Shown: positions 1 through 32,071 of the stretch, one piece after another
Position numbering within the stretch: the stretch's first letter is position 1
How the letters are laid out: each line of letters begins with the position of its first letter
Origin: an uncultured Dehalococcoidales bacterium
GTDB taxonomy: Bacteria; Chloroflexota; Dehalococcoidia; GIF9; UBA5629
Reading direction: 5' to 3'
Assembly: GCA_964437795.1 (NCBI GenBank)
Contig: CAYTIC010000004.1
Location: 3,475-67,474 of the forward strand
DNA length: 64,000 nt
The notes under the pieces: generated by a model
Told to the model about the DNA's origin: nothing
Databases searched by the model: none
What the model saw: the letters and a program-made list of their open reading frames with translations, nothing else
Translations under genes and position numbers: made by a program

Positions 1-1
1 C

Positions 2-424
2 TGCCTGAGGGACAATAACATCCCTCTGCCCGCAGCCTGCGTCTGCCTCTCGCCCTGGACCGACTTGGCCTTCACAGGAGAAACCTGGAAGACAAAACTC
101 GCGGCCGACCTGATCATTTATCCTTATAAGGAATACGCATTCGCCAAAATGTATCAGGGAGGTCTCGATCCGGCAACGCCCCTGGTGTCCCCGCTCTACG
201 CCGATTTGAAAGGATTGCCGCCCCTGCTGGTACAGGTGGGGACGGATGAAGTATTGCTCTCGGACTCAACGCGCCTGGCAGAGCGCGCTAAACAGGCCGG
301 GGTCAACGTGACCATCGAGGAGTGGGAAAAGATGCAACACGTATGGCAGTTCGCCTCCGGCTTTATCCCCGAAGGACGCCGCGCTGTCCAACGGATCGGC
401 GAGTTTATCGACAAATGGGCGTGA
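2..424 (+). CDS. alpha/beta-hydrolase (esterase/lipase, HSL-like fold-3) C-terminal fragment; 5' end lies outside the window
   Basis: Frame is open from nt 2 (…AACVCLSPWTDLAFTGETWK…) and continues into the listed ORF 65..424; C-terminal esterase-like sequence with no stop upstream. Confidence 0.6.
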   Translation, partial: CLRDNNIPLPAACVCLSPWTDLAFTGETWKTKLAADLIIYPYKEYAFAKMYQGGLDPATPLVSPLYADLKGLPPLLVQVGTDEVLLSDSTRLAERAKQAGVNVTIEEWEKMQHVWQFASGFIPEGRRAVQRIGEFIDKWA

Positions 425-477
425 ACCGGCGTATAATTTCTTAAAGGCTAATAAGATTATCATAGAAGTCAAATATT

Positions 478-687
478 ATGCAGGAGATTGAGTCAACTCA
501 ACCCCCGCAGAGCGAACCGGAACTGGCAGCGCTGAGGGCGAAGTCGGCCTCATTAGAGACGAGAATGAGGGAGCTTGTTCAGAAAATCGACGGCAATTCG
601 AATTACAGAAACGACATCATCTGGCTCGCACAGGAGATCAACAAGGTCCAGAAGCAGATCAAGGACCTGGGATCAAAGGACGTTTAA
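478..687 (+). CDS. hypothetical small coiled-coil protein (69 aa)
   Basis: ORF with charged, heptad-like sequence; weak RBS; no recognisable family. Confidence 0.3.
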   Translation: MQEIESTQPPQSEPELAALRAKSASLETRMRELVQKIDGNSNYRNDIIWLAQEINKVQKQIKDLGSKDV

Positions 688-702
688 AGGCGAACCCGAA
701 GG

Positions 703-720
703 TACACCCCTACAGGTGTA
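703..720 (+). terminator. weak hairpin (tacacc-cctaca-ggtgta) after the small ORF
   Basis: 6-bp stem, 6-nt loop, no U-tract. Confidence 0.25.
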
Positions 721-812
721 AATTCCAAGCTCCAAAAACCAAATTCCAATTAATATAATTCAAATTATGATTTTGGAATTGTTTGGAGTTTGGAATTTGG
801 TTATTGGAATTT
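721..812. repeat. AT-rich imperfect palindromic element with reiterated TTGGAATT/AATTCCAA motifs
   Basis: aattccaa(721-728) pairs with ttggaatt(773-780); ccaaattccaa(739-749) pairs with ttggaatttgg(~790-800); three direct ttggaattt copies; sits between convergent genes. Confidence 0.5.
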
Positions 813-1488
813 AGTGATCAACCGGCAGGTCCAATCCTCTTGAAACAGCCCGTTTTATAGCCCGCACTGCCTTTTGGTCGAAGCCGGCTATTTTCTCTGC
901 CAGCGCATCAGCTTCACTCAATAGATCGGGGCGCGGCACCACGCGGTTAACCAGCTTCATATCAAGCGCCTCTTGTGCGCCGACGCGGCGGCCGGTCAGC
1001 AGCAGGTCGAGGGCCGGGCCGGGTCCTATGGTGCGGGGCACGGTCTGCGTGGCCCCAGCTGCTGGGATGAAGCCCAGCGCCACTTCCGGCAGGCCGAATA
1101 CAGCGTCTCCGGAGGCTATTCTTATATCGCAGCACATGGCCATCTCGATGCCGGAGCCGAAGACATAGCCGTGCAGCGCAGCTATCACAGGCTGGGGCAG
1201 GCTCAGGAATAGGCCCCACACATCCCTGTGCCAGCGGACATGGCGGGCGGCCGTAGGCGCCGGGGCGGAGAGGAATTCGCTCAGATCTGCGCCGGCACAG
1301 AAGGCCTTCTCACCGGCGCCCTTTATTATGACAACGTGGACATCGCCATCGGTTTTGATTGCCGAGAGGGCCTCATGCAGCTCATCCCGCATGCGGACGT
1401 TATAGATATTCAATACGTGGGGGCGGTTGAGCGTAATATAAGCTATGTGCCCCCTCTTCTCGTAGAGGATGGTCTCGAATCCGCCCAT
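811..1488 (-). CDS. enoyl-CoA hydratase/isomerase (crotonase) family protein
   Basis: Crotonase motifs (…KGAGEKAFCAGADLSEF…); ATG at 1488 overlaps the upstream gene's stop (ATGA); tracker start 1491 is GTG. Confidence 0.85.
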   Translation of the reverse strand: MGGFETILYEKRGHIAYITLNRPHVLNIYNVRMRDELHEALSAIKTDGDVHVVIIKGAGEKAFCAGADLSEFLSAPAPTAARHVRWHRDVWGLFLSLPQPVIAALHGYVFGSGIEMAMCCDIRIASGDAVFGLPEVALGFIPAAGATQTVPRTIGPGPALDLLLTGRRVGAQEALDMKLVNRVVPRPDLLSEADALAEKIAGFDQKAVRAIKRAVSRGLDLPVDH

Positions 1489-9930: not shown

Positions 9931-10697
9931 TGAGAGATTCGATGGTAATCCTTTGCGCCGACGAAATCATGCTGGCCGGAGAGGTTTTCCTCCCGGACGA
10001 CTGTACCGGGGTTTACCCTGCGGTATGCCTCTGCCACGGCATCCCGGCAGTGCCGTATAACCCGGATGAGAAGGGTGGATATCCGGAGCTGGCAGCCAGG
10101 TTCTGCCGCGCTGGCTTTGCCGCGCTGGTATTCAACTTCCGGGGGTGCGGCCCGAGCCAGGGCAACATCGACATGCCCGGATGGACCTGCGACCTTGAAG
10201 CTGCCGTCGAATTCCTCTACATGCTGCCCGAGGTGGACAGGAGCAAGATATACCTGCTGGGCTCATCCGGAGGGGCGGCGGCCAGCATTTACGCTGCCGC
10301 CCATGACAAACGCGTAAGCGCGGTGGCCACGCTGGCCTGCCCGGCTGAGTTCGACTTTATGGCCGATGGATACACTGCGGAGTCGCTGATCGCCAGGTTC
10401 AGGGAGATCGGCATAATCAAAGATGCGGATTTTCCTCCTTCGGTGAAGAAATGGCTTGACGGATTCAAGACCGTTGCGCCCATAGAACATGTGGGCAAGC
10501 TATCGCCCAAGCCGCTCCTGCTGGTGCACGGCGATAGTGACGACGTGGTGCCGGTTGAACATGCCGAGCGCCTGTACGCCAAGGCCGGACAGCCCAAAGA
10601 AAAAATCATACTGCCCGGCGCAGGCCACAGGCTGCGCCAGGATGAGAGGGCCATAGGGGCGGTCATGTCGTGGCTGCAGAAACTGGCCGGCCTTTAG
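9930..10697 (+). CDS. alpha/beta hydrolase (dienelactone hydrolase/peptidase S9-like)
   Basis: GSSGG nucleophile elbow; HGDSDDVVP and a late His. Confidence 0.75.
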   Translation: MRDSMVILCADEIMLAGEVFLPDDCTGVYPAVCLCHGIPAVPYNPDEKGGYPELAARFCRAGFAALVFNFRGCGPSQGNIDMPGWTCDLEAAVEFLYMLPEVDRSKIYLLGSSGGAAASIYAAAHDKRVSAVATLACPAEFDFMADGYTAESLIARFREIGIIKDADFPPSVKKWLDGFKTVAPIEHVGKLSPKPLLLVHGDSDDVVPVEHAERLYAKAGQPKEKIILPGAGHRLRQDERAIGAVMSWLQKLAGL

Positions 10698-10814
10698 AGA
10701 GGCTGGATTCAAATACGGCGACTATTAACTTGCAGCATGTTATGGTAGATTATTAATATATTGTTAATGCAGCATCCTACCTGGCATTAATCTGAATTTA
10801 CAGGAGGCAGGCAG

Positions 10815-12164
10815 ATGTCGAAGTTACTATACCTGGCATTGGCATTGATCATTACTCTCAGTTCAGCTTGTATCACAGTTGTCCAACCCGGGACCAATAC
10901 GCCAGGCGGCACAACAGCCGATGGAAATAGGCCCGCAGCTTTCATAGATCTGATATCGCCCAGCAGCCTTACCTGGGGACAGGAAGTCAGCTTCACCGGG
11001 CACGGCACCACACCCACCGGCAGCATTACAGCCTATCGCTGGCGTTCCAGTATCGACGGTGACCTGAGTTCAAGGCCCACCTTTGCTACCAGCAATCTTT
11101 CGCGCGGCAATCATATAATACTGTTCTCAGTACAGAACACCGCGGGGAACTGGTCACTCGAGACCCAGGGCACGGTGAATGTCATGACCGAGGCCGGCGG
11201 CGATACCGGCGGTACTCCTCCGCCCGATGATACGATTCCGGCAACGACGCCGCCGGTGATCAATTCGTTCAACGCTTCACCGGCAGGCATCACAGCCGGC
11301 TCCAGTTCGACTCTCAGTTGGGATGTCGGCAACGCCATAGCAGTCACCATCGATAACGGCGTCGGCAGCGTGGGGCTTACAGGTACACGTGTCGTGTCCC
11401 CGGCCGTCGATACGACCTATACCCTGACCGCTGCCAATACGGCTTATTTCAGCCAGGCAACGGTAACTGTAACGGTTGCCGCCGCGGCCGCTACGAAGCC
11501 CGACCTGATAATCGAGGACATATGGAAATCGGGCGACAGGATATATTACCGCATCAAGAACCAGGGACCGGCGGCAGCGCCGGGAACGGTCACAAGGTTG
11601 ACCATCGACGGGGCTGTGAAATCTACGGATTCCGCACCGGCGCTTGCTGCCGGCGCAGCCAGCACCCAGAGTTTCAGCGGCTATGCTTATGCCTGCACCG
11701 GGGTGTCGGATACCGTGATGGTTACGGCCGATTCAACCAATGTTGCCAACGAGTCCAACGGGGGCAACAACAGCATGACCTCGACTTTCAGCTGTCTGGT
11801 ACTCGGGCCCGTGATGCCGCCGCTGGTCGCATTGAAGCCCGACCTGACCATAACAAATATATCTTTCCAGCCGGCGCCCCTTAATAAGGTGTCATTCACC
11901 GTAAAAAACGCGGGCACACTGAATTCGGGCGGCTTCGATGTCAAGCTGTATGTCGGCGGCGCATATAAAGATACGGTCCATATACCAGGCGGAATTGTAT
12001 CCGGGGGCCAGGCCACATTCACTTTCCCGATGTATCACCACGTATGTGTAATCGGCACTCATACCACCATGATGGTAACAGCCGATACGGGTGGGGCAAT
12101 CTCTGAGTCGGACGAGACCAACAACTCGCGCTCCGAGTGGTGGGGCTGTCCTCCCGCTCCGTAG
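10815..12164 (+). CDS. secreted lipoprotein with an Ig-like domain and two CARDB domains
   Basis: Signal peptide with LSSAC lipobox; two KPDL…KN(Q/A)G CARDB repeats; the Ig-like unit (SFNASP…TLSW…TTYTLTA) is shared with the FHA-protein ectodomains. Confidence 0.7.
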   Translation: MSKLLYLALALIITLSSACITVVQPGTNTPGGTTADGNRPAAFIDLISPSSLTWGQEVSFTGHGTTPTGSITAYRWRSSIDGDLSSRPTFATSNLSRGNHIILFSVQNTAGNWSLETQGTVNVMTEAGGDTGGTPPPDDTIPATTPPVINSFNASPAGITAGSSSTLSWDVGNAIAVTIDNGVGSVGLTGTRVVSPAVDTTYTLTAANTAYFSQATVTVTVAAAAATKPDLIIEDIWKSGDRIYYRIKNQGPAAAPGTVTRLTIDGAVKSTDSAPALAAGAASTQSFSGYAYACTGVSDTVMVTADSTNVANESNGGNNSMTSTFSCLVLGPVMPPLVALKPDLTITNISFQPAPLNKVSFTVKNAGTLNSGGFDVKLYVGGAYKDTVHIPGGIVSGGQATFTFPMYHHVCVIGTHTTMMVTADTGGAISESDETNNSRSEWWGCPPAP

Positions 12165-12216
12165 CAGCGTCTGCCCGGGGCTCTCTGACAGAGCGCTTTG
12201 CGACACGTTCAGCGCA

Positions 12217-12245
12217 TTGACCGTGCTGCTATAAAAACGTATAAT
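12217..12245 (+). promoter_or_regulatory. sigma70-type promoter of the pur operon (TTGACC-N17-TATAAT)
   Basis: -35 12217-12222, -10 12240-12245, ~14 nt upstream of the purF ATG. Confidence 0.5.
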
Positions 12246-12259
12246 TCACGTGCAAGCCA

Positions 12260-13690
12260 ATGCAAGATTTGCACGAAAGCTGCGGCATATTCGGTATTTA
12301 CGCCCCCGGAGTAGATGTAGCCCGTGTTACTTTCTTTGCGCTGTATGCCCTTCAGCATCGCGGGCAGGAAAGCGCGGGCATAGCTACGGCCGAGGGTGGA
12401 AAGATCTATATCCATACGGATATGGGACTGGTTTCACATGCATTCAATGAGGAGGAATTGCTGCGCCTTAAGGGCAATATCGCCATCGGCCATAACCGCT
12501 ATTCCACCACCGGCTCCAGCGTTGCCTGTAACGCCCAGCCTGTCCTGGCGGGCACCACAGAACTGAAGTTAGCGCTGGGTCACAATGGCAATATAACCAA
12601 CTCCGCCGCCCTGCGGGCCGGCCTCGAGGAGCAGGGCTTCACTTTCAACTCGTCCACGGACTCGGAAGTAATAGCCTACCTGATGCTCACCTCTCCCGAG
12701 AAAGATGTCGAGGCTAAAATCAAGTATGCCATGCGGCGCCTGCAGGGCGCCTACTCGCTGGTTATACTGGCCGGCGAAAGGCTTTACGGCGTACGCGATC
12801 CCATGGGCGTCAGGCCCCTGTCGCTGGGAACCCTCGATGGCGGATGGGTGCTGGCATCGGAGACGTGTGCTTTCGACCACACAGGGGCTCAGTTCGTCAG
12901 GGAGATAGAGCCCGGCGAGATAGTTACCATCGACAGCAACGGCGCTCGCAGCACCCGTGTCGAAAGCGAACGCAAAGCCCTCTGCATCTTCGAATATATC
13001 TACTTTGCGCGCCCCGACAGCGTGCTCAACGGCAAACTGATTTACTCCACACGGGAGCAGATGGGAGCAATACTATCCCAGCAGTACCCGGTGGATGCCG
13101 ATATGGTGATGGGTGTACCGGACTCAGCCACGGCTGCCGGTATAGGATATGCCAGGGCTTCCGGCATCCCATACCATGAAGGACTTCTCAAGAACCGCTA
13201 TGTCGGACGCACTTTCATTGAGCCGGACCAGCGCCTACGCGAGCTGGGAGTCAGGCTCAAGTTCAACCCGTTGACGCAGGAGATCTCCGGCAAACGTCTG
13301 GTCGTGGTGGACGACAGCATAGTGCGCGGCACGACTACACCGCGTGTTATCAACATGCTGAAGAAAGCCGGGGCCAGGGAGGTGCATATGAGGATCTGCG
13401 CACCGCCCATACGTTACCCCTGCTTTTTCGGCGTAGATATGGCTACTCGCTGGGAGCTGATAGCCGCCCACAAGACCGTGCCGGAGATTAAAGATGCCAT
13501 CGGCGCGGATACACTCGGCTACATCAGCATGGACGGACTGATCGAGGCAATAGATCTGCCCAAGGATATATTCTGCGCAGCCTGCTTTACCGGCGATTAC
13601 CCGATGCCGGTACAGCTTGAGATGGATAAGTTACAACTGGAGACTCTTCCTTTAAACACGGCAAGGAGCCTCAGTGAAATCGAAACCTAA
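12260..13690 (+). CDS. purF: amidophosphoribosyltransferase with a short N-terminal propeptide
   Basis: MQDLHES-CGIFGIY Ntn-hydrolase start; PRTase motif VVVDDSIVRGTT; C-terminal Cys-rich Fe-S region. Confidence 0.9.
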   Translation: MQDLHESCGIFGIYAPGVDVARVTFFALYALQHRGQESAGIATAEGGKIYIHTDMGLVSHAFNEEELLRLKGNIAIGHNRYSTTGSSVACNAQPVLAGTTELKLALGHNGNITNSAALRAGLEEQGFTFNSSTDSEVIAYLMLTSPEKDVEAKIKYAMRRLQGAYSLVILAGERLYGVRDPMGVRPLSLGTLDGGWVLASETCAFDHTGAQFVREIEPGEIVTIDSNGARSTRVESERKALCIFEYIYFARPDSVLNGKLIYSTREQMGAILSQQYPVDADMVMGVPDSATAAGIGYARASGIPYHEGLLKNRYVGRTFIEPDQRLRELGVRLKFNPLTQEISGKRLVVVDDSIVRGTTTPRVINMLKKAGAREVHMRICAPPIRYPCFFGVDMATRWELIAAHKTVPEIKDAIGADTLGYISMDGLIEAIDLPKDIFCAACFTGDYPMPVQLEMDKLQLETLPLNTARSLSEIET

Positions 13691-14702
13691 GGGCGCCTAC
13701 GCCCAGGCCGGCGTCGACATATCGGCCGCCGACAAGACCAAGGACCTGATCAGGGAACTGGTGCGGCCCACGTTCGGCCCCGAGGTGTTGACCGATATAG
13801 GTCATTTCGGCGCCTTTTTCCGGTTGAAACAGTACAATGACCCCGTGCTCGTATCGAGCTCGGACGGTGTGGGCACCAAGCTCAAGATAGCAGTCGTGAT
13901 GGATAAACACGATACTGTCGGCATGGACCTGGTCAACCATTGCACCAACGATATACTTTGCTGCGGCGCCAGCCCCCTCTTTATGCTGGACTACGTGGCC
14001 CTTGGCAAGCTTCACCCGCACAAGGTGGCGGCTATAGTGTCCGGCCTGGCCCAGGCCTGCAAAGAGGTTGGCTGCGCACTGATAGGCGGAGAGACAGCCG
14101 AGATGCCCGGCATGTACAAATCGGCGGACTACGACCTGGCGGGATTTATTGTAGGTGTGGTGGAAAGAGACAGGTTGATCAGCGGAGATAAGATAAGTGA
14201 AGGTGATACCGTGATCGGGCTGGATTCCAGCGGCCTGCATACCAATGGCTACTCGCTGGTGCGCAAGGTATTTGGTATAGATCGCGATGCGCTCGCCCTC
14301 AAGATGATCTACCCCGAGCTCGGCGGCAAGACGCTGGGAGAAGAGCTGCTGCAGCCGCACCGGTGTTACCACAATGACCTCAAGCCTCTGCTGGGGGATG
14401 TCCATGGTATGGCGCACATAACCGGCGGGGGATTTGTGGGGAACATACCGCGTATACTCCCGCAGGACTGCTCAGTCCTGATAGACCGGCCGTCCTGGCA
14501 GGTGCCGGCCATATTCGACCTGATACAGAAGAAAGGCAACATCAAGGATGAAGAGATGTTCAGGGTTTTTAATATGGGAATAGGCATGATTGTGATCTGC
14601 GGGAAGGATGACGCCGCTAAAATGGTGGAAAGCCTGCCCGGCGCCCATAATATCGGCAGGATTATCAAGGCAAACGGCAGCGAGAGAGTGATAATACGGT
14701 AA
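13674..14702 (+). CDS. purM: phosphoribosylformylglycinamidine cyclo-ligase (AIR synthetase)
   Basis: AYAQAGVDI…GHFGAFF…DGVGTK motifs; GTG start with AAGGAG RBS overlapping the purF end. Confidence 0.9.
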   Translation: MKSKPKGAYAQAGVDISAADKTKDLIRELVRPTFGPEVLTDIGHFGAFFRLKQYNDPVLVSSSDGVGTKLKIAVVMDKHDTVGMDLVNHCTNDILCCGASPLFMLDYVALGKLHPHKVAAIVSGLAQACKEVGCALIGGETAEMPGMYKSADYDLAGFIVGVVERDRLISGDKISEGDTVIGLDSSGLHTNGYSLVRKVFGIDRDALALKMIYPELGGKTLGEELLQPHRCYHNDLKPLLGDVHGMAHITGGGFVGNIPRILPQDCSVLIDRPSWQVPAIFDLIQKKGNIKDEEMFRVFNMGIGMIVICGKDDAAKMVESLPGAHNIGRIIKANGSERVIIR

Positions 14703-22658: not shown

Positions 22659-22676
22659 GTGCGTCAGATCAACTTT

Positions 22677-24326
22677 ATGAGAATTAGTCATATTCGAATC
22701 AGGGCGGTCCCCGTCCTGATACTGCCTTTGGTTATCGTAGCAGCGGTGCTAAGCGCCTGCAGCGGTCCCGGCATTGCGGATTCACTTGTAAAAGTACAAT
22801 CCGGTGACACGGTTGTCAACGGTATAATCATCGATAGCACCGGCTACATAGTCACCGGCGCTGGCGCGCTGGGCGACGCCGGCGCCCTGTCCGTTGAGCT
22901 TAAACCCGGGCAGAGCTATACAGGCCGTTTGATATGCAGGGATAGCGCCAGGAACCTGGCAATCCTCAAGATCGAAGGCGGTTACCCTGCGCTCAAGCCT
23001 GCCCTGCTGGGAGATTCTGATCTGGTTCATCAGTGGGATGAAGTGACTGTCTGGGGTAACATGCCGGGCACTTCAAGCCCGGTAGAATCAAAGGGCGCCG
23101 TAACTTCACTGCCCAAGGACGAGGGAACTGCCTACCTGCAGACGAATGCCGCTCTGGACCCGTCGGCGGCCGGAAGCGCCGTCCTGAACAAGGCCGGTGA
23201 GCTGGTCGGGATGGTTTCCTGGAATGCCGGACAGGTGGGCCGGGAAGGGTTCGTGCTATCTTCCAACGAGGTGAAGACGGTACTGACCCAGGCGCAGGAA
23301 GCAGAGGCTGATCCGCTTACTATCGTGTTGCCCGACCCACCGGACGTTTTCAGCGACCGCGCAGTAATATCCTGGAAGACTAACCGCCCGGCAACCGGAC
23401 AGGTGGAGTTCGGTCCAAAAGACTCGTACGGCAACAAGACGGCTTTGGATACGACCATGCTGACTACTCATGCGGCAGTACTGCAGGGACTTGTGCCGAA
23501 AATGACCTATTATTTCCGTGTGCTTTCTGAGGACTGCTGCGGCAACACGGCGGCATCCAGGGGATATACGCTCACCACCACGGCAGCAGGCGCCCAGGGG
23601 GGCAAATTCACGATCTCAAATATAGACGTCTACGATATCACCAGTTCAGCCGCGTCGGTGAGATGGATTACCAACAAACCGGCCACGGGCGCTGTAACCT
23701 ACCGGGCGGATAAAGCGACGGAATCCGATAGTGAAAGCGATAATAGTTTTGTGTACGAACACAAATTCAGGCTGAGCGGCCTGAGCCCGGAGACGCGCTA
23801 TAACGTGAGCATCAAATCTGAGACGGATTTCGATGAATCTGCCGGGCAGGCCCTGGACCCCTTCATGACGCCGCCGACTTCACCGGTCTGTTGTAAGATC
23901 AACTGCAGGATCCCCGATTTCTCTTTTAAAACACTCCAGGGGACCGATTTTACCAACAAGGATATTGCGGGCAAAAAGGTGTTCATCGTGTTTACCAAGA
24001 CCACATGCCCGACCTGCATGAAGCAGGCCCTTTTCCTTAACGATGTCATTCGAGATTGGCCAAAGGGGACCGATATGATGATGTTCATGGTGGCCAGCAG
24101 CGAGAAGAAAGCCGATGTCGAGGAGTGGATCAAGAAATACGGGCTGAACATGCCCGTTTATATAGACTCGACGGCCAACCTGGTCAGCGGGTGCCAGTTC
24201 AGGACCATACCCACGGCGCTTTTCCTGGATACCGGGTCGGTTATCAGGGACTACAAGAGCGGCGGATTCGGCAGCAAAAAAGACATGGAAGAGTCGTTGA
24301 AGCAGTTCTATCAGAAAGAGCGATAG
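22677..24326 (+). CDS. lipoprotein: degenerate S1 (HtrA-like) protease domain + two FN3/PAP-N-like domains + TlpA/ResA-like thioredoxin domain
   Basis: Lipobox LSAC; the trypsin-like region has PSAAGSAV where the GNSGG catalytic-Ser motif is expected (Ser to Ala); C-terminal TTCPTC thioredoxin motif. Confidence 0.7.
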   Translation: MRISHIRIRAVPVLILPLVIVAAVLSACSGPGIADSLVKVQSGDTVVNGIIIDSTGYIVTGAGALGDAGALSVELKPGQSYTGRLICRDSARNLAILKIEGGYPALKPALLGDSDLVHQWDEVTVWGNMPGTSSPVESKGAVTSLPKDEGTAYLQTNAALDPSAAGSAVLNKAGELVGMVSWNAGQVGREGFVLSSNEVKTVLTQAQEAEADPLTIVLPDPPDVFSDRAVISWKTNRPATGQVEFGPKDSYGNKTALDTTMLTTHAAVLQGLVPKMTYYFRVLSEDCCGNTAASRGYTLTTTAAGAQGGKFTISNIDVYDITSSAASVRWITNKPATGAVTYRADKATESDSESDNSFVYEHKFRLSGLSPETRYNVSIKSETDFDESAGQALDPFMTPPTSPVCCKINCRIPDFSFKTLQGTDFTNKDIAGKKVFIVFTKTTCPTCMKQALFLNDVIRDWPKGTDMMMFMVASSEKKADVEEWIKKYGLNMPVYIDSTANLVSGCQFRTIPTALFLDTGSVIRDYKSGGFGSKKDMEESLKQFYQKER

Positions 24327-24399: not shown

Positions 24400-26037
24400 T
24401 TAAGACCTGAATACGAAGCTGAGCGCGCCTGCAAGATCGATGGTATCACCGTCGTTCAGGGCGTGCTTGCCCGTACCCTTTATGGAGGAGCCGTTCAGCC
24501 TGGTGCCGTTAGTGCTGCCCCGGTCCTCGACATAGTACTGGCCGTTTTCATAGCTGACCGTGATATGTTGCCTGGATATCAGGTCGGCTTTGTCGGGGGC
24601 TACCATGGACTGGAAGTCCCTGCGCCCCAGAGGATTGCCGTCACCCGCCAGCGAAAGCTCGCTGCCGTTGGAGGCAACGAATTTGGCCGGTGGGCCAACG
24701 GATACCGGCGTGGTTTTGGGAGAACCTGTGGCCGGCAGTGTGGCAACGGGTGAAGTGACAGCAGGCATGGTGCCACCACGTGCGGTGCCATAATGAGCGA
24801 CCTGCGCAGCAGGCTTTCGCAGCAGCAGTATAACTATTATGATGGCGGCGGCGCCTAACAGGGCGATGAGCAGGAGATAAGGCAGCCACCAGGCCAGCGT
24901 CGAATTGCCGTTGCCTGCGCTGGGGATGGTGCTGATCTGGCTTGCAGCGGGAATTGATTCCGTTGTACCGGTATAGGCACTATCGGTGTAATAAGTGCTG
25001 CCGATATAGGGAGCTACTGTAACCGTAGTGCTGGCTACCGCCGTACCCCCGCTGTTGGATGCTGACAGGGTATACGTGGTCGTATAAGCGGGCGTTACAA
25101 CATACATACCGTTATTGGGCACCGAGCCCACCGACGGCGATATGCTGACGTTGGCCGTGTTGTCCACCATCCAGGACAATGTGGCAGTTTGTCCCGACTG
25201 TATATAGCTGGGATTAGCTGTGAATGAGCTGATCACAGGCGCGTAGACCGGGGTAGGTGTGGAAGGCACCACTACGATTGGGTAGGAAGGTGTGATCCAG
25301 GACCTGTACCACGGATAGGGATAGGGATTATATGGGGGGTAGGGAGGATATGGCGGCCGCGGATGTGGAGGAGGTGGTGGCGGCCATGGTGATGGCGGCC
25401 CCGGAGGTGGCGGACCTGGAGGTGGCGGCCATGGAGGTGGCGGACCCGGAGGCGGTGGCCCCGGAGGAGGCGGTCCTGGAGGAGGTGGTCCCGGGGGAGG
25501 TGGAGGAGGCGGATATGGGTATGCCGGCCCGCCGACGGGCGGCGCAGGTGTTATAACCTGGTCTATGATTGTTGGTGACGAGGACGGTGGTGTCGCCGGC
25601 GGCAAAGGGGGTGGTGGGAGAGTGACCTCCGGCGGAGGTGGCGTAGCCTCGGCTACAAGTGTAGGGGGCAATGGCGGCGCTGGATCTGAAGCAGGCATAA
25701 CGGTAGTCTCAGCTACCGGGGCGGAGATAACAGGAAGAATCACAGCCGACGCGTCGATTACCGGAGGCGAGAGTGGCGGAGGTGTATATATGGCTCCCGG
25801 CCCGCCGACGGGCGGCGCAGGTGTTATAACCTGGGCCATGATTGTCGGTGACGAAAGCGGCGGTGTCGTCGTATCAACAGGAGTTTCGGATGGCGCCGGT
25901 TCATCGGCGTAGAACACGCTTGCAGACCGGCTTGTTGAAACATCCTGCGCTGCAGAGGCAGGCGTAAGCGGCAGCATGAGTGCAGAGCAGATTAATAGCG
26001 CTGCCGCAAGGAACTGTATAGTTTTATTTATGTTCAT
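24400..26037 (-). CDS. single-pass membrane protein: signal peptide, Pro-rich stalk with internal repeat, Ig-like domain, TM, C-terminal cytoplasmic FHA domain (FHA paralog 1)
   Basis: AGGAGG RBS; signal peptide; extreme (PPPPG)n tract; TM LLLIALLGAAAIIIVILLL; FHA signature GRRD…SRQH…STNGT. Confidence 0.8.
   Translation of the reverse strand: MNINKTIQFLAAALLICSALMLPLTPASAAQDVSTSRSASVFYADEPAPSETPVDTTTPPLSSPTIMAQVITPAPPVGGPGAIYTPPPLSPPVIDASAVILPVISAPVAETTVMPASDPAPPLPPTLVAEATPPPPEVTLPPPPLPPATPPSSSPTIIDQVITPAPPVGGPAYPYPPPPPPPGPPPPGPPPPGPPPPGPPPPWPPPPGPPPPGPPSPWPPPPPPHPRPPYPPYPPYNPYPYPWYRSWITPSYPIVVVPSTPTPVYAPVISSFTANPSYIQSGQTATLSWMVDNTANVSISPSVGSVPNNGMYVVTPAYTTTYTLSASNSGGTAVASTTVTVAPYIGSTYYTDSAYTGTTESIPAASQISTIPSAGNGNSTLAWWLPYLLLIALLGAAAIIIVILLLRKPAAQVAHYGTARGGTMPAVTSPVATLPATGSPKTTPVSVGPPAKFVASNGSELSLAGDGNPLGRRDFQSMVAPDKADLISRQHITVSYENGQYYVEDRGSTNGTRLNGSSIKGTGKHALNDGDTIDLAGALSFVFRS
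25385..25510 (-). repeat. coding tandem repeat, ~15-bp unit (GGAGGTGGCGGNCCN on the + strand) encoding (PPPPG)n
   Basis: about 8 consecutive units visible in the DNA; lies within FHA paralog 1. Confidence 0.7.
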
Positions 26038-26057: not shown

Positions 26058-27641
26058 CTATATTTTAAAGGTGATACTAAGTTTATCGGCCAGCTCAACT
26101 ACATCACCGTCGACAAGGGCCTGCCTTCCATTGCCGCGGATCTCGGAGCCGTTGACCCTGGTGCCGTTTGTGCTGCTGCGGTCCTCGATATAGTATTTTC
26201 CATCTTCATACCATACGTTTATGTGCTGCCTGGATATGAATGAGGACCTTTCTCCGGGAAGAAGCTTTTCAAAGTCCTGGCGGCCTAACGTCCTGGTATT
26301 GCCGGCCAGCAGCATCTCGCTTCCGTCGGGCATAACCAACTTGGCCGGCGGAGCTTCCGTGACTGAAGTAGACGGTCCGGAATCGCCCGCTGTTGAAGTG
26401 GCGGCAGTCGATGTGGCGGCGGCAGAGGTAGAGGCAGCAGATGTAGCTGAGGCTGCCCGGGCGCCCGCTGCGCCGGTCGGATGGGATGCCCGGGGTCTCC
26501 TGACCAGCATTATGACTATCACGGTGGCCGCTATGGCCAGAAGTCCCAGAAGGCCGTAAAGCAGGTAGGGCGGTTGCTCAACTAATAAGGTTACAGCCAC
26601 CGCCTGTGTGGTACCGTCGATGTATGTGGCGGTTAGGTTGTAGGTGGTTGTTTGATCGGGCGTCACCGTCATAGTCCCCATAGCGTCGAAGTTACCCAGC
26701 CCTTCTATAAAAACCTTTACAGCGGCCGGGGCATTCCACGAAAGTACAGTGGATTGACCGGACTGTATGGTGGGCTGCTGTACGGTCAAAGTCGGTGATA
26801 CCCTCGGTATAACACTGATACTGGTGTTGGCGGTAACCGTGCTGCCTGAACTGCCCGTTGCCGACAGGGTGTAAGTGGTGGTTGCACCTGGGGTAACGGT
26901 CGTTGAACCCGATGTGCCCACTGTCCCAATCCCCGGAGTAATGGCGACGTTATTAGCGTTTGTGGTGGTCCAGGTAAGGGTGACCGTCTGTCCGACATCT
27001 ACCGACGATGCATTTGCACTGAAGGAGTTGATCACAGGCGGGTAGATCGGCCTGGGCGATGGCCCGCTGTAAGGGGAAATACTTCCGCGCGTATAGTTGA
27101 AGCTCAGGGTGCGTGTCGACCATGAGAAGCCGGAGTTGTACCACATCTTCCAGACATAGAGACCGTCGGGGTCCCATGATTCGGCGCTGAACGGCCCGAT
27201 CCGCCACATGCCCGCGTAGGGCCTGTACCACCTGTAGCACAGCCAGTGGCCATAGGGGGTGCTTCCCTGTGGGTAGTATTCCCACAGGTAAAAGTAACCC
27301 GGGCCGTTAAATGATACAACCAGGTAGCACAGGTCATTGCGGTACAGGTTGTACAACGTTTGCCCGTAGCTGGTCACAAGGTAGGCATTTACGATCGAAC
27401 CGGCAGCTCCCGGCGGGGGTGGTGTCGGGACCGTCATCTGGAGGCTGGGCCAGGTCTGATTGTAAGTATCAACTGCGACCGGGGGCTCAACCATTTCGCC
27501 GCCATCGTCCGGCGGTTGCCAGCTTTCATCGGGATTGACCGGTGGGGATGGCTGAGCCTGAACAGGCGAAAATACTGCAGCCGCTGCAGATACGACCATG
27601 AATGTGATCAGCAACGGTATAATTATCTTTTTCATATACAT
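26058..27641 (-). CDS. single-pass membrane protein: signal peptide, aromatic-rich ectodomain, two Ig-like domains, TM, C-terminal FHA (FHA paralog 2)
   Basis: AGGAGGTGA RBS; YLWEYYPQG…WR(I/L)GPF domain shared with paralog 3; Ig-like repeats shared with paralog 1; FHA GRQD…SRQH…STNGT. Confidence 0.8.
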   Translation of the reverse strand: MYMKKIIIPLLITFMVVSAAAAVFSPVQAQPSPPVNPDESWQPPDDGGEMVEPPVAVDTYNQTWPSLQMTVPTPPPPGAAGSIVNAYLVTSYGQTLYNLYRNDLCYLVVSFNGPGYFYLWEYYPQGSTPYGHWLCYRWYRPYAGMWRIGPFSAESWDPDGLYVWKMWYNSGFSWSTRTLSFNYTRGSISPYSGPSPRPIYPPVINSFSANASSVDVGQTVTLTWTTTNANNVAITPGIGTVGTSGSTTVTPGATTTYTLSATGSSGSTVTANTSISVIPRVSPTLTVQQPTIQSGQSTVLSWNAPAAVKVFIEGLGNFDAMGTMTVTPDQTTTYNLTATYIDGTTQAVAVTLLVEQPPYLLYGLLGLLAIAATVIVIMLVRRPRASHPTGAAGARAASATSAASTSAAATSTAATSTAGDSGPSTSVTEAPPAKLVMPDGSEMLLAGNTRTLGRQDFEKLLPGERSSFISRQHINVWYEDGKYYIEDRSSTNGTRVNGSEIRGNGRQALVDGDVVELADKLSITFKI

Positions 27642-27798
27642 AAATCACCTCCGGGTGAGCTGTATGCTTTTATCCAGTATAAAGGTGTCGTCCCCACTCT
27701 GCTTGACCACTGCCTTACAAGTGCCTGACAATTTTATGATAAGACGGAGGTTAACCGATTTTGAGACAGGATAATATCACACTGAAGGGGAAAACAGA

Positions 27799-28905
27799 CT
27801 ACTGGTCGGACCTGAGCTTAATGCTGGCCTTGCCGGCCATCTCTATTACATCTCCGTCATGCAAATCCACCAACCCCGCACCCCTTATATCCCGGCCGTT
27901 GACGGTAGTGCCGTTTGCGCTGTCCATATCCTCGATAAAAGGCTTTCCTTCCTCGAAACTGATCCTGAAGTGCCGCTTGGATATCGCTCCCAGTTCATCC
28001 AGTCCCAGCGACCTGGCGATATGGGCCCGTCCGATTATTTCGCTTTCGCCGCCCAGCCGTATCTTCTGCCCGTTGGGCAATTCCAACGTAGCCAGGGCTG
28101 TTCCGCGCACCTGTGTGCGTGCCGGCGCCGACGGTTTCTCGAGCAGTTCTACCAAGGGTTGATTCACCTCGTTTTGCGGATAACGCCGTTCTCGCAGGGA
28201 CCGGCGCACGAGCCACCCCATCAGTACGATGAGGACTATGATTGAAGGGGCAATCAGCAGGGTCACGGGATTGGTGATGAATTTAATAAACTGGTCGCCA
28301 GGTGATACCGGCGGCACTGCTGCGGGGGTTGAAACGGCCTGCGTATTTTCTCCCGTGCCTTTTTCGTAGTCCCAGTAGACAAGGTCGCTTTTCTGTGTAC
28401 CGCCAGTCGCCCACTGTCCGTTTCCATAGAAGAAAAACCTGTAGATATGCTGCCCTACAAGCTCGTCCTCACCCGGCCAGAACGGACCAAGCCGCCATCT
28501 CCCGGGCTCCAGCAATTGCCATTTATAGGCTATCCATTTTCCCTGGCTTTCACCCCCTGAGGGGTAATACTCATATATATACAGCCAGCCCGGGGTATTG
28601 ATGTCGACATCGAGGTACCATTGCTCATCCCCCGACACTTTGTGGCCGCCAGCGGTGAACTTCCCCCACAGGCCGGCAATCAGCCCCGGCGGCGCGTCTG
28701 AAGGCTGTGCCGTAGCGCCCTGTAACACGAGGGTAACGGGCGGCTTTATCTCGCTATGCTGGGTATCGCCCTCGGGTTCGGGAATTGTGTAGTTCTCGGT
28801 CGGGGCGCCCATGGCATAAGCAGGTACGTGTGTAATAACGGCGGCGCCCAGTGATGACAGTAGAATGGCCAGCGTAAATACAAGTGCAGGTATCCGCCGG
28901 CTCAT
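27799..28905 (-). CDS. single-pass membrane protein: signal peptide, aromatic-rich ectodomain, TM, C-terminal FHA (FHA paralog 3)
   Basis: Start ATG overlaps the STK stop (ATGA); FHA GRAH…SKRH…SANGT. Confidence 0.8.
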   Translation of the reverse strand: MSRRIPALVFTLAILLSSLGAAVITHVPAYAMGAPTENYTIPEPEGDTQHSEIKPPVTLVLQGATAQPSDAPPGLIAGLWGKFTAGGHKVSGDEQWYLDVDINTPGWLYIYEYYPSGGESQGKWIAYKWQLLEPGRWRLGPFWPGEDELVGQHIYRFFFYGNGQWATGGTQKSDLVYWDYEKGTGENTQAVSTPAAVPPVSPGDQFIKFITNPVTLLIAPSIIVLIVLMGWLVRRSLRERRYPQNEVNQPLVELLEKPSAPARTQVRGTALATLELPNGQKIRLGGESEIIGRAHIARSLGLDELGAISKRHFRISFEEGKPFIEDMDSANGTTVNGRDIRGAGLVDLHDGDVIEMAGKASIKLRSDQ

Positions 28906-29921
28906 TTGGATACCTCCAGTGCTTTCACCTCGCCGGTGCTTGAAACCAGGAGGGCTGTCCTCATGGCCACGGCGCTGGCAAACCTGCTGCCGGGGGAGTA
29001 CATAATGGACTGCGCGAGACAGCGGGCAGTCTTTTTAGAGAAGCCTGCTGAAATCATGTGGTCCGCCACCGTGCCGGCCTCCGCATAACTGCGCGGCCAG
29101 GAGGTGTGGATCAACTCGGTGCACAGGTCGTTGGGTTGCCTGAGTGTGAGCAGGTATATGCAGGTCTGGGCCAGGCCGCACAGGTCGCAGCGCTGGTCGC
29201 TCTCACCGCCGATGAAAAGTTCAGGTATGTCAAAACCCTTGTTAGCTATCTGGGTGAAGGGGTCAGTCCTGATGGTGTCCTTCTTCATGCTTTCCAGGCT
29301 TTTGGCCGTGCCGAAGTCGATCAGCTTAATGCCGCCATTGCCGCTCAGCATGATGTTCTTGGGATTGATGTCCCTGTGCACGATGCCGGCAGCATGGATA
29401 TAGGCCAGGGCATCCAGCGCCTGGCCGGCCCAGAACAGGACCTTTTGCTCACCGGCCGATGTCCTTGGCGAGGAGGACATGATGGTTTCACCTGTTATCA
29501 ACTCAAGCACCAGGTGGAATTCTCCCCTGTAATAAAAATCATCCAGATATGTGACTATGTTGGGGTGCTGCAGCCTTTTCAGGAAACCTGCCTCCTGGCG
29601 CAGCTTGTCCAGGTATACGTTGTCCATGGTAGTGCCCCTGCGGGGCGTCTTGATGATGCATTTCCTGCCGTTGGTGCGGTCCCTGGCCAGCCAGATATTC
29701 GCCATGCCCCCCTGTTTGAATGCCGGCGCTTTGAGCTCATAGCGGCCGTTAACGCGATGTTTGCTTTCAGGCTGGGCCGGCTGCGGCCGCAGGGGCTCTC
29801 CGCGGCGCAGTGCGGAAGCCCTCATTTTGCGCCTCTGGATTGCCTGAATAATGGCCACAATCACAGGTACACTGGTGAAAACCAGCGCAATGACTATTAC
29901 GAAAAGGGTAGGATCGTCCAT
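28902..29921 (-). CDS. Hanks-type Ser/Thr protein kinase, N-terminal TM anchor, no extracellular sensor
   Basis: VAIK-like lysine (CIIKTP), HRDINPKN catalytic loop (atypical spacing), DFG, IPE; ATGA overlap with the PP2C stop. Confidence 0.85.
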   Translation of the reverse strand: MDDPTLFVIVIALVFTSVPVIVAIIQAIQRRKMRASALRRGEPLRPQPAQPESKHRVNGRYELKAPAFKQGGMANIWLARDRTNGRKCIIKTPRRGTTMDNVYLDKLRQEAGFLKRLQHPNIVTYLDDFYYRGEFHLVLELITGETIMSSSPRTSAGEQKVLFWAGQALDALAYIHAAGIVHRDINPKNIMLSGNGGIKLIDFGTAKSLESMKKDTIRTDPFTQIANKGFDIPELFIGGESDQRCDLCGLAQTCIYLLTLRQPNDLCTELIHTSWPRSYAEAGTVADHMISAGFSKKTARCLAQSIMYSPGSRFASAVAMRTALLVSSTGEVKALEVSK

Positions 29922-30724
29922 CAGGCTGTTCTTACCCCCGTCTTTGCCGATATCAAAGCCTGCCAGGAAGGAAGGCCGCCCGGCCTGGCGATAATGACCG
30001 ATATATTGTCCGGGCCGCCGACCAGGTTGGCCTGCGAGACCAGGTCGGAGCAGGCCTGCGAGGGACTGGCCGAAGCGAGCACCGTTTCCTCGATTTTATC
30101 CGTAGGGAGCACTCCGCAAAGGCCGTCCGAGCACAGGAGCACGTTGTCGCCGGCGTATAGCTTGATCTGTATGAGGTCCGGCACGCTGTTTGCACTGTAT
30201 CCCAGCACGCGTGTTATCTCGTTGCGGCGAGGGTGGGCTAAGGCTTCACCGGACGATATCTGCCCGGTATCTACAAGCTCCTGCACCACTGAATGGTCCG
30301 TTGTGACCTGTATGGTCTCCCTGGAGTTGATAATATAACAGCGGGAGTCTCCAATATGCGCCACGTACATGTCCTGGCCTATCAAAAGGGCGGCAGTGAG
30401 AGTGGTACCCATGCCCTGCAGCGATTTTTCCGCTGCGGCTTCGAGGACAGCGCTGTTAGCCTTGCTGAAGGCAGCGCCCATCAGTGGCAGCCCCGGCTTC
30501 GACGACCTGGTCAGCAAACCGGAGATACATTCAGCCTGGAAAATCCTGATAGCCAGGTCGCTGGCTATCTCCCCGGCATCGTGGCCGCCCATCCCGTCCG
30601 CGACGGCTAACAGGCCTGCCGATACCATTCCGGAGTGCGTCCGCAGGTCAAAGGTGCTGCAGAAGATGCTGTCTTCGTTAAGCTTTCTCACCAGGCCGGT
30701 GTCCCAGCCGTAACCAGTGTCCAA
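29921..30724 (-). CDS. PP2C-family Ser/Thr phosphatase
   Basis: LAVADGMGGHDAGEIAS metal-binding motif; TTG start 6 nt after an AAGGAG RBS. Confidence 0.85.
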   Translation of the reverse strand: MDTGYGWDTGLVRKLNEDSIFCSTFDLRTHSGMVSAGLLAVADGMGGHDAGEIASDLAIRIFQAECISGLLTRSSKPGLPLMGAAFSKANSAVLEAAAEKSLQGMGTTLTAALLIGQDMYVAHIGDSRCYIINSRETIQVTTDHSVVQELVDTGQISSGEALAHPRRNEITRVLGYSANSVPDLIQIKLYAGDNVLLCSDGLCGVLPTDKIEETVLASASPSQACSDLVSQANLVGGPDNISVIIARPGGLPSWQALISAKTGVRTA

Positions 30725-30746: not shown

Positions 30747-31229
30747 TTAACCTGACCTGAAGATCAGTGTGGCGCCCGGCTGCCTGGCCAGTTCTATCCT
30801 GTCGCCATCTTTAAGAGGCTGCTTACCTTTATGATGGATATCAATGTTGTTGACCCTGGTGTGATTGGTGCTGCCGGTCCCGTCGCGTCCGTGATCCTGC
30901 ACATAATAGGTTCCCTTTTCATATGTCAGCAGCAGATGCTGCCTGGAGATGCTCATTAAAGCGTCCTGCTGGAGTTTGCCCTCAAAGTCACTGCGCTGAA
31001 TGAACTGAGGAATGCTATTGAGGACGATTTCATTACCCCCCGGCAAGATCAGCCTGGCCGTAGACCCCAGCGGCTCAGCTTCAATGATCTCCTCAACAGC
31101 CATGCCGCCGAGCGCAGGTTCCGACTCTGTGAACAGGTAATTGCCGCAACTATAACAGAAAAAACTGCCGGCGCCGTTCAAACCGTGACAGGCCGGGCAG
31201 ATTACACTGACGCTTATTACCTCTTCCAT
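30747..31229 (-). CDS. zinc-ribbon + FHA domain protein
   Basis: CPACHG…CYSCG zinc ribbon followed by FHA SRQH…STNHT. Confidence 0.75.
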   Translation of the reverse strand: MEEVISVSVICPACHGLNGAGSFFCYSCGNYLFTESEPALGGMAVEEIIEAEPLGSTARLILPGGNEIVLNSIPQFIQRSDFEGKLQQDALMSISRQHLLLTYEKGTYYVQDHGRDGTGSTNHTRVNNIDIHHKGKQPLKDGDRIELARQPGATLIFRSG

Positions 31230-31297: not shown

Positions 31298-31387
31298 AAA
31301 TCTGACATATTTAAACTCTATGACGATTGTCCTTGATATATTATACTGCAAGAGGATATACAGACTTTACAAGGCTGGAGTCCGGTG

Positions 31388-32071
31388 ATGGCTTTCATCA
31401 TAGTTAAGAAAGGTGATGCTGAGGATATCGGTAAAATATTTACCCTGAGCAGGGCTAATATGGTGATAGGCCGCCGCACACCAAAGTATAAGCCAGACAT
31501 CGAGTTAAGCGATGAAGCCGTCTCAAGGCGGCATGTCGAGATCATTGAGAAAGACGGCCGTTATCAATTGCGTGACCTGGGCAGCACAAATGGGACTATG
31601 CTGGATGATGACAGGATACTGCCCGGCAAGCTATATGAGTTGAAACACAACTGTAAAATTGGATTGGGGGTAGCAGCAGGCCCGGCGCAGGTCTTGTTGA
31701 TTTTCAAGCAGTCGGAGAGTACTAACCTGATGGGGAGGCAGGGGGCAAGTCCGGTTGAAAAGGTCATTGCAACGGACGTCAGCTGGCTGAAGATCGACGA
31801 GGCCAGGAAGGAGGTCTGTGTGGACGGCGAACCCGTAAAACTGTCGCGCAAGGAGTACGAGTTGCTGATGTTCCTTTACCAAAACGCCGGCGCAGTCTGC
31901 CTGCGCGACGAGATTATTAAGGTTGTGTGGTCCGAGAGCCAGGACCCGGCTGCCATATCCGACGCAACCCTCGACCAGCTTGTGCACCGTCTGCGCGAGA
32001 AGGTTGAACCCGAGCCTGTTAATCCAACACGCATCATAAGCCGAAAAGCCTTCGGCTATATGCTGGTTTAA
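31388..32071 (+). CDS. FHA domain + OmpR/PhoB-type winged-helix DNA-binding domain transcriptional regulator
   Basis: N-terminal FHA (GRR…SRRH…STNGT); C-terminal trans_reg_C (KLSRKEYELLMFLYQNAGAVCLRDEII…LDQLVHRLREKVE). Confidence 0.8.
   Translation: MAFIIVKKGDAEDIGKIFTLSRANMVIGRRTPKYKPDIELSDEAVSRRHVEIIEKDGRYQLRDLGSTNGTMLDDDRILPGKLYELKHNCKIGLGVAAGPAQVLLIFKQSESTNLMGRQGASPVEKVIATDVSWLKIDEARKEVCVDGEPVKLSRKEYELLMFLYQNAGAVCLRDEIIKVVWSESQDPAAISDATLDQLVHRLREKVEPEPVNPTRIISRKAFGYMLV

Follow-up and report, generated by a model that had tools for sequence, protein, structure and literature searches.

What does the outward-facing part of a membrane protein do when its cytoplasmic end reads phosphorylated threonines? 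The question is raised by a locus in a 64,000-nucleotide stretch of contig CAYTIC010000004.1 (positions 3,475 to 67,474), from an uncultured Dehalococcoidales bacterium. In this stretch, hereafter the window, three genes for paralogous membrane proteins with FHA domains (paralogs 1 to 3) lie next to genes for a Ser/Thr kinase and a PP2C phosphatase. The interval 26058-28905 consists of two intact open reading frames (ORFs), encoding paralog 2 (26058-27641; 527 amino acids) and paralog 3 (27799-28905; 368 amino acids), within a tight string of minus-strand genes. A preliminary description of this DNA had proposed that paralogs 2 and 3, and not paralog 1, share an extracytoplasmic block of ~110 amino acids (aa), rich in Trp and Tyr, and that this block is a candidate novel sensor domain for a ligand or the cell wall. 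The block, here called ARO, is a genuine, previously unclassified domain family with a generic fold. That it serves as the binding head of receptor-like FHA proteins, working with a kinase that itself lacks an ectodomain, is a reading to which we assign a probability of about 0.5.

The shared block is real. In BLASTP with composition-based statistics, the N-terminal regions of paralogs 2 and 3 aligned at E=1e-15 with 27% identity, separately from the alignment of their FHA domains (E=5e-21). The Smith-Waterman score of the two blocks (aa 79-188 of paralog 2, 27078-27407, and aa 73-185 of paralog 3, 28351-28689, both on the minus strand) was 157, compared with 37.9 +/- 7.2 (maximum, 75) for 2000 composition-preserving shuffles of paralog 3 (z=16.6), and the family hidden Markov model (HMM) matched the two blocks at E=1e-54 and E=1e-50, respectively. 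All of the motifs named in the preliminary description were found, namely, YLWEYYPQG, YRWY, and GMWRIGPF in paralog 2 and YIYEYYPSG, YKWQ, and GRWRLGPF in paralog 3. Trp, Tyr, and Phe together made up 26.4% of the paralog 2 block and 21.2% of the paralog 3 block, compared with ~10% of the whole proteins. This high aromatic content is all that speaks for a compositional artefact, that is, two aromatic-rich segments aligned by chance, an outcome that the preliminary description had itself named as fatal to its proposal. The similarity is not merely compositional, because the z score of 16.6 was obtained against shuffles that preserve composition. On this score, the composition-adjusted E value, and the confidently predicted fold described below, we rejected the artefact, whose probability is negligible; 18 columns were invariant across 8 sequences, and the positionally conserved residues include nonaromatic ones, with E121, P124, and G160 (paralog 2 numbering) invariant in 53 sequences. 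Paralog 1 (24400-26037, minus strand; 545 aa) lacks the block as described: even with every filter disabled, it scored below zero against the family HMM, to which its orthologues in ~30 genomes likewise gave no match.

Sequence inspection and a hydropathy scan gave the three paralogs the same layout, with an N-terminal signal-peptide-like segment, one transmembrane (TM) helix, a run rich in Arg, and an FHA domain at the C terminus, which marks them as membrane proteins of type I, whose N-terminal portion faces outward. Because a signal-peptide-like segment precedes the ARO block and a TM helix, an RRxR stretch, and an FHA domain follow it, the block is placed on the extracytoplasmic side, in agreement with the preliminary description. 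In paralog 2, the signal peptide is followed directly by an N-terminal strap with the motif PPxxPxxxWxPP (aa 31-78, 27408-27551), the ARO domain, two immunoglobulin (Ig)-like repeats in common with paralog 1 by BLASTP and without a significant Pfam match (aa 196-355, 26577-27056), a TM helix (aa ~357-385, 26487-26573) with RRPR after it, a Thr/Ser-rich linker that reads ...ATSAASTSAAATSTAATSTAGDSGPSTSVTE..., and the cytoplasmic FHA domain (aa 433-526, 26061-26345; PF00498, E=1.4e-11). Paralog 3 has a strap that starts with GAPTENYT and contains a conserved N-x-T sequon (aa 33-72, 28690-28809), the ARO domain, a short stalk, a TM helix (aa ~208-235, 28201-28284) with RRSLRERR after it, a linker, and the cytoplasmic FHA domain (aa 271-367, 27802-28095; E=7.6e-14). 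All of these features are on the minus strand. Paralog 1 consists of a signal peptide, a Pro-rich region, one Ig-like repeat, a TM helix, and an FHA domain. The PF00498 scores of paralogs 1, 2, and 3 were 52.3, 45.1, and 52.3 bits, respectively, against a gathering cutoff of 20.7, and the phospho-threonine-binding motifs (Gly-Arg, Ser-x-x-His, and Asn-Gly-Thr) are intact in all three (LGRRD, ISRQH, and STNGT in paralog 1; LGRQD, ISRQH, and STNGT in paralog 2; IGRAH, ISKRH, and SANGT in paralog 3). The Yop-YscD_cpl profile also matched the FHA domains weakly. As a separate observation, the Pro-rich tract of paralog 1 is very long and partly repeated (PPPPGPPPPGPPPP...), also holds two copies of SSPTI[MI][AD]QVITPAPPVGGP, and coincides with a GC-skew spike at 24-26 kb (0.207).

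By sequence, ARO is absent from Pfam, NCBIfam, and the PDB sequences. No Pfam family, the known sensor ectodomains (PASTA, Cache, CHASE, and PBP-like) included, matched either isolated ARO block at E ≤ 10; Pfam and NCBIfam searches over 53 family ectodomains at E ≤ 5 gave scattered single matches and no consistent family; and the ARO profile found nothing below E=0.8 among PDB sequences, while PDB searches with full-length paralog 2 and with the zinc-ribbon FHA protein encoded nearby were uninformative. The preliminary description had held that a match to a well-known carbohydrate-binding or structural domain would count against it, and no such family match appeared in these databases. DUF4384 (PF14326) superficially resembles ARO in its strand motif (a hydrophobic strand, G-Y/W-L-Y-I-Y, and a turn with G), but the resemblance was not borne out, with one of 53 members matching at E=0.15 and none of the window proteins matching at E ≤ 10, and membership in this family was rejected. 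Likewise, the Pfam families of alpha-2-macroglobulin (A2M) and macroglobulin (MG) domains gave no match, BiPBP_C matched one of 53 members (E=0.16), and ARO belongs to none of the carbohydrate-binding module (CBM) families of CAZy or Pfam. A literature search returned nothing on the ARO domain or on FHA proteins of Dehalococcoidia.

AlphaFold2 (AF2) modeled the domain as an eight-strand beta-sandwich, with a predicted local distance difference test (pLDDT) score of 82.7 and a predicted template-modeling (pTM) score of 0.74 from an 8-sequence alignment and with scores of 89.5 and 0.84, respectively, from a 53-sequence alignment that also covers the residues from the end of the signal peptide to the start of the block. 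Because the first ten residues after the signal peptide (PPxxPxxxWxPP) reach a pLDDT of 96 in the model, the N-terminal Pro/Trp strap is predicted to dock onto the ARO domain; two of its prolines, P34 and P43, are conserved in 48 and 49 of the 53 sequences, respectively. The model has the two-sheet arrangement and the strand number (7 to 9) of the Ig-like and MG-like sandwiches and can be superposed on known members, and its predicted fold is an Ig/fibronectin type III (FnIII)/macroglobulin-like beta-sandwich; the sequence family is new, whereas the fold is an ordinary one. The claim of a novel domain thus stood for sequence and did not for fold, which AF2 and fold comparison predicted to be generic, and the claim that the block is unrelated to the Ig-like repeats stood for sequence (hhalign probability, 0.2%) and failed for fold class.

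Fold class is shared with the MG domains of alpha-2-macroglobulin, complement C3/C5, and CD109, with RbmA, and with domain III of HAP2/Fsx1. Identity to such Ig, FnIII, and MG domains is ~10%, with no sequence match, and ARO differs from them in its own signature (YL..n.pG.lYiyEYYPxG..p.GHW...G.w.iGPF.pE..EP.G.H.w..W), in the Pro/Trp strap, and in occurring singly at the N-terminal tip. In paralog 2 numbering, the signature residues are Y106-L107, E121-Y-Y-P124-x-G, G131-H-W133, G144, G149-P-F151, E157-P-x-G160-x-H162, W167, W174, and Y183. The structural neighbors include CBMs and, equally, purely structural MG and Ig domains. The cell-wall-binding idea of the preliminary description would take its most concrete form if the aromatic-rich sandwich were a CBM that binds glycans of the surface layer (S-layer) or of envelope polysaccharides, for anchoring or for sensing. 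Aromatic content and nonspecific fold neighbors are the points in its favor, but the likeness to beta-sandwich CBMs, such as the Wzt C-terminal domain and the GbpA domains, is no stronger than that to nonbinding Ig and MG domains, Foldseek returned no match at E ≤ 0.001 (TM-scores, ~0.5-0.6), and ARO lies outside every CBM family by sequence. We consider a CBM unlikely.

How widespread is the domain? When 1.84 billion cluster representatives were searched exhaustively with a HMMER profile, 76 proteins matched at E ≤ 1e-3, and 52 of these also passed a threshold of 1e-10. Ten of the 76 were discarded as noise, being long repeat proteins (DUF7507, SprB, LRR/Ig, and others) with several short partial matches, and counts of the Pfam families HAP2-GCS1 and WWE traced to these discarded proteins. 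The ~66 true relatives (representatives) contain ARO exactly once, at residues ~60-190 right after the signal peptide and always at the N-terminal tip, in the constant architecture of signal peptide, ARO, Ig repeats (where present), TM helix, and tail. The tail is an FHA domain in 30 representatives, a double zinc ribbon (DZR) in 4, and a short basic stub in 23, a few of which are probably truncated; the other 9 are fragments. This survey of domain fusions, which the preliminary description had suggested, found FHA domains, double zinc ribbons, and short stubs as the sole cytoplasmic partners, and none of the ~66 relatives was fused to a kinase, histidine kinase, cyclase, or other enzymatic output. 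Word-indexed homologue searches had yielded just 8, 2, and 26 close relatives, among which fragmentary or frameshifted sequences were numerous. Several database homologues (P0001 and P0005; L001, L040, and L042) are shortened by frameshifted assemblies, their C termini reading the alternative frame that appears in the window as a 110-aa ORF inside the paralog 2 gene (26953-27285, minus strand), and the short "stand-alone" ARO proteins of the first homologue search were rejected as frameshift artefacts.

Patterns scanned against one genome per GTDB species located 43 loci, all in metagenome-assembled genomes (MAGs) of Dehalococcoidia/Chloroflexota; the pattern was built on the 8-sequence alignment, is biased to Dehalococcoidia proteins like paralogs 2 and 3, and says nothing on other taxa. 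The window is collinear with these Dehalococcoidia contigs, with 77-86% nucleotide identity over >16 kb, which identifies it as Dehalococcoidia DNA. The short-tailed relatives with NCBI labels are archaeal and come from Thermofilum sp. (P0060 cluster) and from Thermoproteota, Brockarchaeota, and Bathyarchaeia (P0054 cluster). As far as we have seen, ARO is confined to Dehalococcoidia and Thermoproteota-type archaea.

Gene order ties the domain to phosphorylation. On the minus strand of the window, the genes run in the order putative zinc-ribbon FHA protein (ZnR-FHA; 30747-31229), PP2C phosphatase (29921-30724; PP2C, E=2.1e-15), Hanks-type Ser/Thr kinase (28902-29921; Pkinase, E=3.4e-30), paralog 3, paralog 2, and paralog 1. 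The PP2C and kinase genes overlap by 1 nucleotide (nt) (29921), and 4 nt (28902-28905) are shared by the stop of the kinase gene and the start of the paralog 3 gene. Because these stop and start codons overlap, the arrangement suggests translational coupling of the phosphatase, the kinase, and the first ARO-FHA protein. The kinase has one N-terminal TM helix and no ectodomain, since just ~5 residues lie outside that helix. A divergent plus-strand gene (31385-32071) encodes an FHA protein with an OmpR-type winged helix-turn-helix (wHTH) domain (Trans_reg_C by Pfam), and this regulator, whose position is conserved in ~38 loci, is the likely transcriptional output of the cassette. The whole cassette, with the FHA-wHTH gene divergent from the genes for ZnR-FHA, PP2C, kinase, ARO-FHA of the paralog 3 type, ARO-FHA of the paralog 2 type, and FHA of the paralog 1 type, is kept in order in ~38 of the 43 Dehalococcoidia loci. 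Three loci (L041, L043, and L044) have a single ARO-FHA gene, and the remaining noncassette loci are contig fragments or frameshifted long-read assemblies. An Rfam scan of the window gave no match.

Two observations concern the flanks of the cassette. The plus-strand gene at 22659-24326 encodes an unusual fusion of a Trypsin_2 protease, two FN3/purple-acid-phosphatase-N-like domains, and a thioredoxin-fold Redoxin/AhpC-TSA domain, with a signal-anchor-like N terminus, and keeps its place beside the cassette, in synteny, in related genomes. A Dehalococcoidia MAG related to the window (L001, 12503-17019) has genes for Ku and LigD (nonhomologous end joining) inserted just downstream of the FHA cassette, where the window has none.

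The same association recurs outside the Dehalococcoidia cassette. The three zinc-ribbon-tailed relatives examined (P0070, P0072, and P0114) all have their genes within clusters that also contain VWA, DZR-FHA, FHA, PP2C, and kinase genes, and a relative from the Thermofilum group has a kinase gene 1.3 kb downstream. The window ZnR-FHA protein aligned end to end with the DZR-FHA proteins of L045 and L048, and the window PP2C was 43% identical to that of L051, these three loci being those of the zinc-ribbon-tailed relatives.

Across Dehalococcoidia orthologues, ARO is the best-conserved segment of both proteins, with a mean identity to the window of 77% in paralog 2 and 57% in paralog 3, compared with 65% and 54% for the FHA domains, 60% for the Ig repeats of paralog 2, and 27% and 23% for the linkers (the paralog 2 means for FHA, Ig repeats, and linker also include paralog 1 orthologues). 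Ratios of nonsynonymous to synonymous substitution rates (dN/dS), calculated by the Nei-Gojobori method against the three closest genomes, were 0.02-0.05 for ARO, 0.07-0.17 for FHA, and 0.07-0.12 for the Ig repeats in paralog 2 and 0.17-0.21 for ARO and 0.16-0.33 for FHA in paralog 3. These values indicate strong purifying selection on ARO, which is clearly a functional domain, and the constraint is asymmetric, the paralog 2 ARO being far tighter than the paralog 3 ARO in the same three genomes. The mature N terminus of paralog 3-type proteins is almost invariant (GAP[TS][DE]N-x-T) and replaces the PPxxPxxxWxPP strap of paralog 2-type and archaeal members. Its N-x-[ST] sequon, whose position is shared by 37 of 39 aligned rows (paralog 3 orthologues, L002-L044), may be an N-glycosylation site.

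Constraint of this kind also bears on the possibility that ARO senses nothing and that the heads of paralogs 2 and 3 bind each other, as hetero- or homodimers, or act as rigid spacers, in either case fixing an FHA platform for the kinase. The two genes are adjacent and co-retained in ~35 loci, the extreme conservation of ARO is what a protein-protein interface would be expected to show, and the top structural neighbors are structural or oligomerizing sandwiches (RbmA, the PECAM Ig dimer, and MG domains). Against such a scaffold stand the three loci with one ARO-FHA gene only and the archaeal relatives, which occur as single genes; moreover, the asymmetric constraint (dN/dS of ~0.03 in paralog 2 and ~0.2 in paralog 3) is not obviously the result of a symmetric, co-evolving interface. 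A pure scaffold is a possibility that we take seriously and hold to be clearly the less probable one.

Several findings weigh against a binding head of receptor-like FHA proteins. The fold is generic, and its best neighbors are mostly structural or spacer domains (the A2M/C3/C5 MG domains, RbmA, and HAP2 domain III). About a third of the family (23 of the ~66 representatives) ends in a short basic tail, with the look of simple proteins anchored at the surface, and in two of the six non-FHA contexts examined, those of the short-tailed P0055 and P0076, the neighborhood is without kinase, FHA, or PP2C genes. Finally, because the dN/dS of the paralog 2 ARO is as low as 0.02-0.05, the constraint argues for a fixed protein or envelope partner rather than a variable environmental ligand. 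The short tails and the two contexts without signaling neighbors would also be expected if ARO were a generic domain of surface proteins or adhesins, an Ig-like building block among others, whose fusion to FHA in Dehalococcoidia is incidental, and so would its combination with Big_3_5, CARDB, Filamin, and (weakly) SlaA-like domains, as in archaeal surface proteins. Generic Ig blocks are repeated, however, whereas ARO is always single and at the N-terminal tip; the tail is an FHA domain or a zinc ribbon in 34 representatives, ~38 genomes keep the cassette, and three of the six non-FHA contexts are kinase/PP2C/FHA clusters, all of which makes this explanation quite improbable. The association with signaling, part of the original proposal, consequently survives in a weaker form: FHA fusion and kinase-gene neighborhoods speak for it, and because short-tailed members and contexts without kinase genes exist, ARO is not exclusively a signaling input. 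It is mostly tied to Ser/Thr phospho-signaling and also works outside signaling proteins.

The neighborhoods of the two exceptional relatives hold genes worth recording for their own sake. In L047, a contig of 30.6% GC, the P0055 gene is followed, with an 8-nt overlap, by a gene for a 1298-aa protein with an SQHop_cyclase_C match (10090-13986, plus strand). Matches to SQHop_cyclase_C can come from thioester-domain (A2M-like) proteins, and this neighbor is curious given the MG-like fold of ARO. In L050, a 551-kb contig, genes for ubiquitin, ThiF (E1-like), and UQ_con (E2-like) proteins (1-1106, minus strand) lie 7 kb from the gene for P0076, a minimal ARO-TM protein.

How, then, might a binding head work in the window? 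A binding or recognition role that feeds a phospho-threonine scaffold is plausible from the sequences. Under this reading, ARO would be the membrane-distal head of a type I single-pass protein with a cytoplasmic, phospho-threonine-reading FHA domain, and two ARO-FHA proteins and one ARO-less FHA paralog would be cotranscribed with PP2C, the ZnR-FHA protein, and the membrane-tethered Hanks kinase. The partner of the ARO heads would be conserved and extracytoplasmic, a component of the envelope or another ARO head, and its binding would set the position or the clustering and density of the FHA tails. These could then engage phospho-threonines in the kinase and in the Thr-rich linkers next to the membrane. 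The receptor-like FHA proteins would in this way serve as the outward-facing part missing from the kinase, PP2C would reset the system, and the FHA-wHTH protein would pass its state to transcription. We infer the binding function, the coupling to the kinase, and the direction of signaling from this arrangement. Dehalococcoides-type bacteria and Thermoproteota are known for S-layer envelopes that lack classical peptidoglycan, and the label "cell wall" for the partner of ARO needs care for this reason. A more detailed version would make ARO the envelope- or ligand-sensing head of a distinct class of type I "FHA receptors", which have a phospho-threonine reader or a zinc ribbon as their only cytoplasmic output and act in trans to a sensor-less kinase; the domain would have been exchanged between Thermoproteota and Dehalococcoidia and would report the state of S-layer-type envelopes, with paralog 2 as the almost invariant coreceptor and paralog 3 as the faster-evolving specificity subunit. 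Taken as a whole, this version is speculative and rather unlikely.

Comparable systems show what would be new. Membrane-associated FHA proteins of Hanks-kinase operons include the mycobacterial FhaA and FhaB (FipA), with PstP, PknA, and PknB, and FHA-TM-periplasmic domain proteins include YscD and PrgH of type III secretion systems (T3SS). Like the Hanks-kinase operons of Actinobacteria, the window cassette places FHA adaptors beside a PP2C phosphatase and a Ser/Thr kinase, and the proteins are single pass with Thr-rich linkers. Unlike the mycobacterial and T3SS proteins, the window paralogs are type I, with a C-terminal FHA domain inside and a sizeable folded ectodomain outside, and stand three in tandem; unlike the mycobacterial operons, the cassette has a kinase without PASTA or another ectodomain and contains no peptidoglycan-synthesis genes (RodA/PbpA).

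The second comparison is archaeal. A module of ArnA (zinc-finger-FHA) and ArnB (vWA), controlled by kinases and phosphatases, has been described in Sulfolobus (PMC6509490), and the clusters of the three zinc-ribbon-tailed relatives have the same composition as this module. A vWA-STPK-FHA-PP2C operon (STPK, Ser/Thr protein kinase) from Deinococcus is also in the literature. The window protein at 30747-31229 has a putative ArnA-like architecture, with a clear FHA domain (E=1.2e-10) and two visible CxxC pairs, although its DZR match (E=0.021) is weak and below the cutoff and the protein had no sequence match at E ≤ 0.001 to ArnA structures in the PDB. The two systems differ in that the Dehalococcoidia cassette genes include no VWA gene, VWA being found solely in the clusters of the zinc-ribbon-tailed relatives, and in that descriptions of the Sulfolobus Arn network do not include ARO membrane proteins.

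Signal transduction is almost uncharted in Dehalococcoidia and Bathyarchaeia/Thermoproteota, abundant organisms of the subsurface that have mostly not been cultured. ARO is an unannotated family fit for a database entry (Pfam), with ~66 representatives, a clear signature, and a confidently predicted fold, and it belongs to a seven-gene Ser/Thr-phosphorylation cassette that extends across ~38 Dehalococcoidia species-level genomes and in which the outward folded parts are on the FHA adaptors alone, the kinase having none. Should the ARO heads be only spacers, they represent one more Ig-like surface domain. If they bind something, they would provide a testable example of bacterial receptor-like FHA proteins and would also link the bacterial cassettes to archaeal phospho-signaling modules of the ArnA/ArnB type.

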